NCBI RefSeq assembly: GCF_003334385.1 | Contig: NZ_QOWN01000157.1 | Direction: 5' to 3' (one strand) | From: Escherichia coli | Lineage (GTDB): Bacteria; Pseudomonadota; Gammaproteobacteria; Enterobacterales; Enterobacteriaceae | Length of the DNA stretch: 638 bases | Shown: piece by piece, positions 1 through 638 of the stretch | How the letters are laid out: each line of letters starts with the position of its first letter | Position numbering within the stretch: the stretch's first letter is position 1 | Program-made: the position numbers and the translations under genes | The notes under the pieces: model-generated | Told to the model about the DNA's origin: nothing | The model's input: only the letters and a program-made list of their open reading frames with translations | The model's database searches: none

Positions 1-638
1 TCAGAGCAGTCACCGCGGGTGGTGCTCTGGGAAATCGACCTGACGGTACAGGGCGGTGAGCGGTATTTTTTCTGTAATGAGCTGAATGAAAAAGGGGAGC
101 CGGTGACCTGGCAGGGGCGGCAATATCAGGCGTACCCGATTGAGGGGAGTGGCTTTGAGATGAACGGAAAGGGCAGCAGTGCCCGCCCGTCGCTGACGGT
201 GTCCAATCTGTTTGGTCTTGTCACCGGAATGGCGGAGGATTTGCAGAGCCTGGTGGGGGCCACGGTGGTCCGCCGCCGGGTGTATGCCCGTTTTCTGGAT
301 GCGGTGAATTTCGTTGCGGGCAATCCGGAGGCGGACCCGGAGCAGGAGCTGAGTGACCGCTGGGTGGTGGAGCAGATGTCGGAGCTGACAGCCATGACGG
401 CCTCGTTTGTGCTGGCGACACCGACGGAGACGGACGGTGCGCTGTTTCCCGGTCGCATCATGCTGGCGAACACCTGTATGTGGGATTACCGGGGAGATGA
501 ATGCGGGTATAACGGTCCTGCGGTGGCGGATGAGTTCGACAACCCCACCACGGATATCCGTAAGGACAGATGCAGCAAGTGCATGCGCGGGTGTGAACTG
601 CGCAGGAATGTCGGCAATTTTGGCGGTTTCCTTTCCAT
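1..638 (+). CDS. L: Phage minor tail protein L (lambda gpL family, tail-tip assembly protein); partial at both 5' and 3' ends, internal fragment in frame 1
   Basis: Seen in sequence: frame +1 (codons 1-3, 4-6, ...) is open for all 212 complete codons, with no in-frame stop. The translation contains long stretches I recognise from lambda gpL, recalled from memory and not from a database search: VVLWEIDLT, GERYFFCNE, EKGEPVTWQGRQYQ, GSGFE, NGKG, RP(S/T)LTVSNL, VTGMAED, QSLVG, TVVRR, VYARFLDAVNFV, ADPEQE, ASFVL, TPTETDGA, FPGRIMLANTC, YRGDECGY, GPAVADE, CSKC and RNVGNFGGFLS. Codon usage is GC3-rich and enterobacterial-phage-like. No start codon is expected in the window because the N-terminus lies upstream. 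Confidence 0.92.
475..594 (+). other. Cysteine-rich C-terminal region of gpL-like protein (5 Cys within 40 codons), a candidate iron-sulfur cluster binding segment
   Basis: Seen in sequence: Cys codons at 475-477 (tgt), 502-504 (tgc), 571-573 (tgc), 580-582 (tgc) and 592-594 (tgt), in the context TCMWDYRGDECGY...DRCSKCMRGCEL. Established knowledge: the C-terminal domain of lambda gpL-family tail tip proteins has been reported to coordinate an iron-sulfur cluster through conserved cysteines. Which four of the five act as ligands is not determinable from sequence alone. Confidence 0.6.

Follow-up and report, generated by a model that had tools for sequence, protein, structure and literature searches.

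Gene L in the Analyzed Stretch

The DNA analyzed here, referred to below as the window, is a single stretch of 638 bases with 59.9% G+C, and it lies entirely within one gene. On the + strand, from position 1 to 638, it carries an internal segment of a gene for a lambda gpL-type tail tip hub protein, corresponding to codons 15–226 of 232, where the codon offset of 14 was taken from the 232-aa L protein of a contig with identical sequence (L012). Contigs of this kind were located by looking up the exact full-length 232-aa L protein, which was found in ten places, six of which (L012, L013, L015, L016, L017, and L018) hold the window at 638/638 identity. In all of these exact-match contigs the L gene is full-length at 232 aa, with its start codon 42 nt upstream and its stop codon 19 nt downstream of the window. 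Whether the gene and its prophage are intact is thus judged throughout from contigs with identical sequence, not from the window's own flanks.

The continuous frame-1 translation on which the original prediction had been built is borne out by the stop codon counts, which are 0, 9, and 12 in the three + strand frames and 2 in each frame of the − strand, leaving all 212 codons of + frame 1 open. Frame 1 is still open in only 7 of 20,000 mononucleotide shuffles of the window, and the analytic probability of such an open frame is 3e-4. Moreover, the G+C content at codon positions 1, 2, and 3 is 0.61, 0.46, and 0.73, which is the usual enterobacterial coding pattern. Comparison with relatives gives a similar picture. 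From E. coli EC2, its nearest relative among complete E. coli genomes, the window differs at five nucleotides, all of them synonymous changes at third codon positions; 16 of the 20 differences from phage 2851 are at third positions in unchanged codons, and 100 of the 155 nucleotide differences from lambda also fall at third positions. With the differences from EC2, 2851, and lambda falling mostly at third positions, the window is a functional coding sequence under purifying selection and not a pseudogene.

It could still be argued that frame 1 is open by chance, or that the functional element of the window is an antisense ORF or a structured RNA, given that the antisense strand has two ORFs, 115 and 66 codons long, and that two weak terminator-like hairpins were reported where 0.4 would be expected. 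In lambda, three internal stops interrupt the longer antisense frame and two the shorter, and hence the − strand ORFs at 126–473 and 221–421 were rejected as genes; they are by-products of the codon composition of the sense strand. The two short sites that combine a hairpin with a run of T lie inside the coding sequence, have nothing but the pattern itself behind them, and were judged to be chance occurrences and not terminators. An Rfam scan of both strands of the window gave no match at E ≤ 1, and neither direct or inverted repeats nor promoter-like sites were found in searches of the window. With overwhelming homology support for the sense frame, as described below, this explanation is extremely improbable.

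Family Assignment and Domain Structure

Searches of four resources with the 212-aa translation assign it to the gpL family. The Pfam family PF05100 (Phage_tail_L) matches with an i-E value of 3.1e-92 and 308 bits over model positions 3–202 of 206, and the NCBIfam equivalog TIGR01600, “phage minor tail protein L,” reaches 362.3 bits over profile positions 5–220 of 224, against a curated cut-off of 70.75 bits; the family thresholds are exceeded over nearly the entire length of both models. PHROG 18 and PHROG 4199, both described as “minor tail protein,” match the translation at an E value of about 1e-136. Among solved structures, the best match is the lambda Tail tip protein L (PDB 8IYK chain L; E 1.6e-118, 397 bits), to which the alignment is gap-free over 211 residues, placing window residues 2–212 on lambda residues 16–226. 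The claim of a gpL homolog is therefore upheld by PF05100, TIGR01600, both PHROGs, and the lambda structure alike, and the HMM search that had been proposed as its check recovers the gpL families. One detail has to be corrected: Phage_min_tail, which had been named as the Pfam family for gpL, is PF05939 and represents the gpM family, the gpL family being PF05100. The window gene is a plain member of an already known family, showing all the defining features that sequence can address, and the earlier view that it does not represent a novel system is correct; RefSeq already lists the protein under the name “phage minor tail protein L.”

[quoted passage not shown] When the window is aligned to 8IYK chain L, positions 1–456 (+ strand) encode most of the N-terminal beta-sandwich HDI (lambda residues 15–166), and positions 418–636 (+ strand) encode the C-terminal iron-binding domain (lambda residues 154–226). 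Identity to lambda gpL is 78% over residues 15–153 and 81% over residues 154–226.

All four [4Fe-4S] ligand cysteines of lambda gpL are kept in the window, each encoded on the + strand: a TGT codon at 475–477 (window residue 159, lambda Cys173), a TGC codon at 502–504 (residue 168, Cys182), a TGC codon at 571–573 (residue 191, Cys205), and a TGT codon at 592–594 (residue 198, Cys212). The window also keeps a fifth C-terminal cysteine (lambda C208) and C39. The two non-ligand cysteines that distinguish lambda gpL from the window gene are C140, which is replaced by methionine in the window, and C12, a position that the window does not cover and at which the full-length allele has no cysteine. 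[quoted passage not shown] The cluster of this type of protein is oxygen-sensitive and, in gpL, exposed at the surface, and its role has yet to be settled in the literature (PMC10721106).

Genomic Neighborhood

In all six exact-match contigs the genes around L follow one order on one strand, namely tape measure (H), M, L, K, I, and J. The families of the neighbors agree with this reading: M belongs to PF05939 and L to PF05100, K combines Prok-JAB and NLPC_P60, I is Lambda_tail_I, and J carries the gpJ domain set. The tape measure gene is preceded by that of tail assembly protein T in all six contigs, and where a contig reaches that far, a major tail subunit and a tail assembly chaperone come before T. 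Further upstream, HK97-type head genes (a capsid/protease fusion, portal, connector, and head closure) were seen in the four exact-match contigs that are long enough on that side. The annotations of E. coli EC2, of phage 2851, and of lambda give the order H-M-L-K-I-J as well, and that of EC2 also includes a terminase large subunit.

The expectation that M lies upstream and K, I, and J downstream on the same strand thus holds in the six exact-match contigs, EC2, 2851, and lambda, the window itself comprising only 638 bases, and the more general assignment to a phage or prophage tail module is in keeping with the head and tail genes that surround L in the exact-match contigs and in EC2. The predicted gene order as such also stands, the exception being that L and K are not always adjacent. 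They are neighbors in lambda and in the exact-match contigs, but in phage 2851 they are separated by a small hypothetical ORF and by a gene whose product is antirepressor-like (L002:8658–10322).

The genes flanking L are tightly packed, an arrangement typical of translationally coupled tail genes. In L012 the stop codon of M and the start codon of L overlap by one base in the sequence TGATG (L012:9998–10002), and K starts after the L stop codon with a gap of 10 nt. The TGATG overlap suggests translational coupling of M and L within a late tail operon, and by homology gene L would be expressed late, as part of the H-M-L-K-I-J operon.

About 8 kb downstream of L, past the tail fiber genes, a gene for a trimeric autotransporter is found (L012:18828–20201; also in L009–L018). 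The encoded protein has a YadA anchor as well as a match to the immunoglobulin-binding EibD (PDB 2xqh, E 7.1e-85), and it appears to be Eib-type cargo carried by the prophage.

Prophage, Prophage Remnant, or Tailocin

Because head genes are present upstream of the tail genes in the four exact-match contigs that extend far enough, the locus is a prophage rather than a tail-only element. This bears on whether the window might instead derive from an F-type tailocin, a phage-tail-like bacteriocin, or from a gene transfer agent. Such an origin has some appeal, as the second-best match among solved structures is the baseplate hub protein (BHP) of an F2-pyocin (25vf_7, E 7.7e-41), and gp13 of RcGTA is likewise a gpL homolog with an Fe-S cluster (PMC10721106). 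In bit score, lambda gpL is far ahead of the F2-pyocin hub protein, at 397 versus 143 bits, and the window shares 96–98% DNA identity with Stx-converting phages deposited as phage genomes, which speaks against both a tailocin and a gene transfer agent. To our knowledge, tailocins carry no capsid, portal, head-tail connector, head-closure, or terminase genes. Here, the first four are found in those exact-match loci that reach upstream and the terminase in EC2. The F-type tailocin was rejected on these two grounds, the head genes in the exact-match loci and the weaker F2-pyocin match, and we attach practically no weight to either a tailocin or a gene transfer agent.

A more serious qualification of the prophage reading is that the window may be a bona fide gpL gene that resides in a defective or cryptic lambdoid prophage, where L would be either a decaying remnant or one maintained by recombination. 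Many lambdoid prophages in multi-copy E. coli genomes are defective, and up to 12 copies of the L gene occur in a single E. coli genome. Furthermore, the portal gene is in two pieces of 454 and 407 aa in the exact-match contig L012 (L012:849–3433), and the portal region is without a called gene in another exact match, L013, and in L009, whereas EC2 (L011) has an intact portal of 861 aa. A split or uncalled portal may reflect either a real defect or an assembly error; we infer that the split calls belong to long-read assemblies, in which homopolymer errors are common. The intact L frame with its almost entirely synonymous variation argues against a decayed remnant, and the complete head and tail gene sets in the exact-match loci argue against a defective prophage. 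On balance, a defective host prophage is unlikely, though considerably more probable than the tailocin. The preferred reading, to which we assign a probability of roughly 0.97 and which none of the results contradicts, is that the window forms the body of the L gene in a lambda-like siphovirus, carried as a prophage in Escherichia-type chromosomes. As far as sequence comparison can tell, the window gene combines family membership and conserved ligands with synteny and purifying selection.

Mosaicism Around and Within L

Gene L of the window's type is found behind quite different sets of upstream genes. The L allele of contig L010 differs from the window by one base and encodes the same protein, and it stands behind a lambda-type set comprising Phage_cap_E, gpZ, gpU, a gpV-like tube, and a lambda-type tape measure. 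When L012 was compared with L010 by BLASTN, similarity set in at position 9982, 19 nt ahead of the L start codon, with none found before it, and from that position through K, I, J, and beyond the identity was 96–98%. The M/L boundary (9982–10001 in both L012 and L010) corresponds, in the exact-match contigs, to the stretch from 61 to 42 nt before the first base of the window. The gpM proteins of the two contigs agree in only 50 of 113 aligned columns (44% identity). From these comparisons it is plausible, with the odds about evenly balanced, that the L-K-I-J tip module is exchanged as a cassette whose left junction lies at the M/L boundary. If this junction were a preferred recombination point, the interface between gpM and gpL/gpJ must tolerate very different partners. 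If the cassette is real, it would add a modest point to our understanding of modular phage evolution and to tail-tip engineering, in line with the long-known mosaicism of lambdoid phages.

Exchange on a smaller scale can be recognized within L itself. A search with an exact pattern of 131 bases found five viral contigs, none of which is identical to the window over its full length. Two of these, L004 and L008, are identical to the window over nt 1–416 and then show 24 differences, 18 of them within nt 465–522, in a divergent region spanning nt 417–580. A third, L007, has a divergent block at nt 117–232, followed by only four differences (nt 407–464). This clustering suggests short gene-conversion patches among co-resident lambdoid prophages, and the patchy variation of L is familiar lambdoid mosaic exchange and not something new.

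Relatives and Abundance

Lambda gpL (PDB 8IYK/8IYL/8K35/8XCG/9E7M; NP_040597) is the reference to which the window gene can be compared most directly. The two proteins have the same length, the L protein of the exact-match contigs also being 232 aa, and align without gaps; 168 of 212 aa (79%) are identical, leaving 44 amino acid differences, at a DNA identity of 75.7%. They share the domain order, in which the HDI beta-sandwich is followed by the iron-binding C-terminal domain, as well as the four cysteine ligands and the place of the gene between M and K in the tail operon. What sets most of the exact-match contigs apart from lambda is the surroundings of the gene, in which L is linked to an HK97-type head and to a different tail tube, tape measure, and gpM.

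Closer relatives are the L genes of Stx-converting and related lambdoid phages and prophages, such as 2851, Stx2a_WGPS6, and Stx1a_10314, which have the same structural module and a DNA identity of 96–99%. The E. coli EC2 protein WP_115187404.1 is identical over the window. The differences within this group amount to patchy mosaic blocks and a small number of substitutions, most of them synonymous, and phage 2851 departs from the exact-match contigs by its extra genes between L and K. [quoted passage not shown] In T5, the equivalent parts form a single fused protein. These are distant homologs, and the window gene is a close member of the lambda type.

Near-identical copies of the window are abundant. 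By megablast they occur in 156 phage records, mostly of Stx1a-, Stx2a-, and Stx2c-converting phages, with a best identity of 98.1%. Of 5,426 complete E. coli genomes, 1,929 carry such copies, at a best identity of 99.2% and with a median of 2 and a maximum of 12 copies per genome. Sixteen of the 6,590 matching places in the E. coli genomes are located on plasmids and not on chromosomes; these may represent phage-plasmids or plasmid-borne prophage fragments.

Significance of the Locus

With regard to the role of the gpL Fe-S cluster, the window adds only another case of conserved ligands. Its practical value lies in annotation, as a marker of the tail module of a lambdoid prophage, around which M, H, and the tail tube genes are to be expected upstream and K, I, J, fiber, and cargo genes downstream. 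The type of prophage marked in this way includes the Stx-converting phages, and roughly one in three complete E. coli genomes contains a lambda-like prophage of the window's kind.
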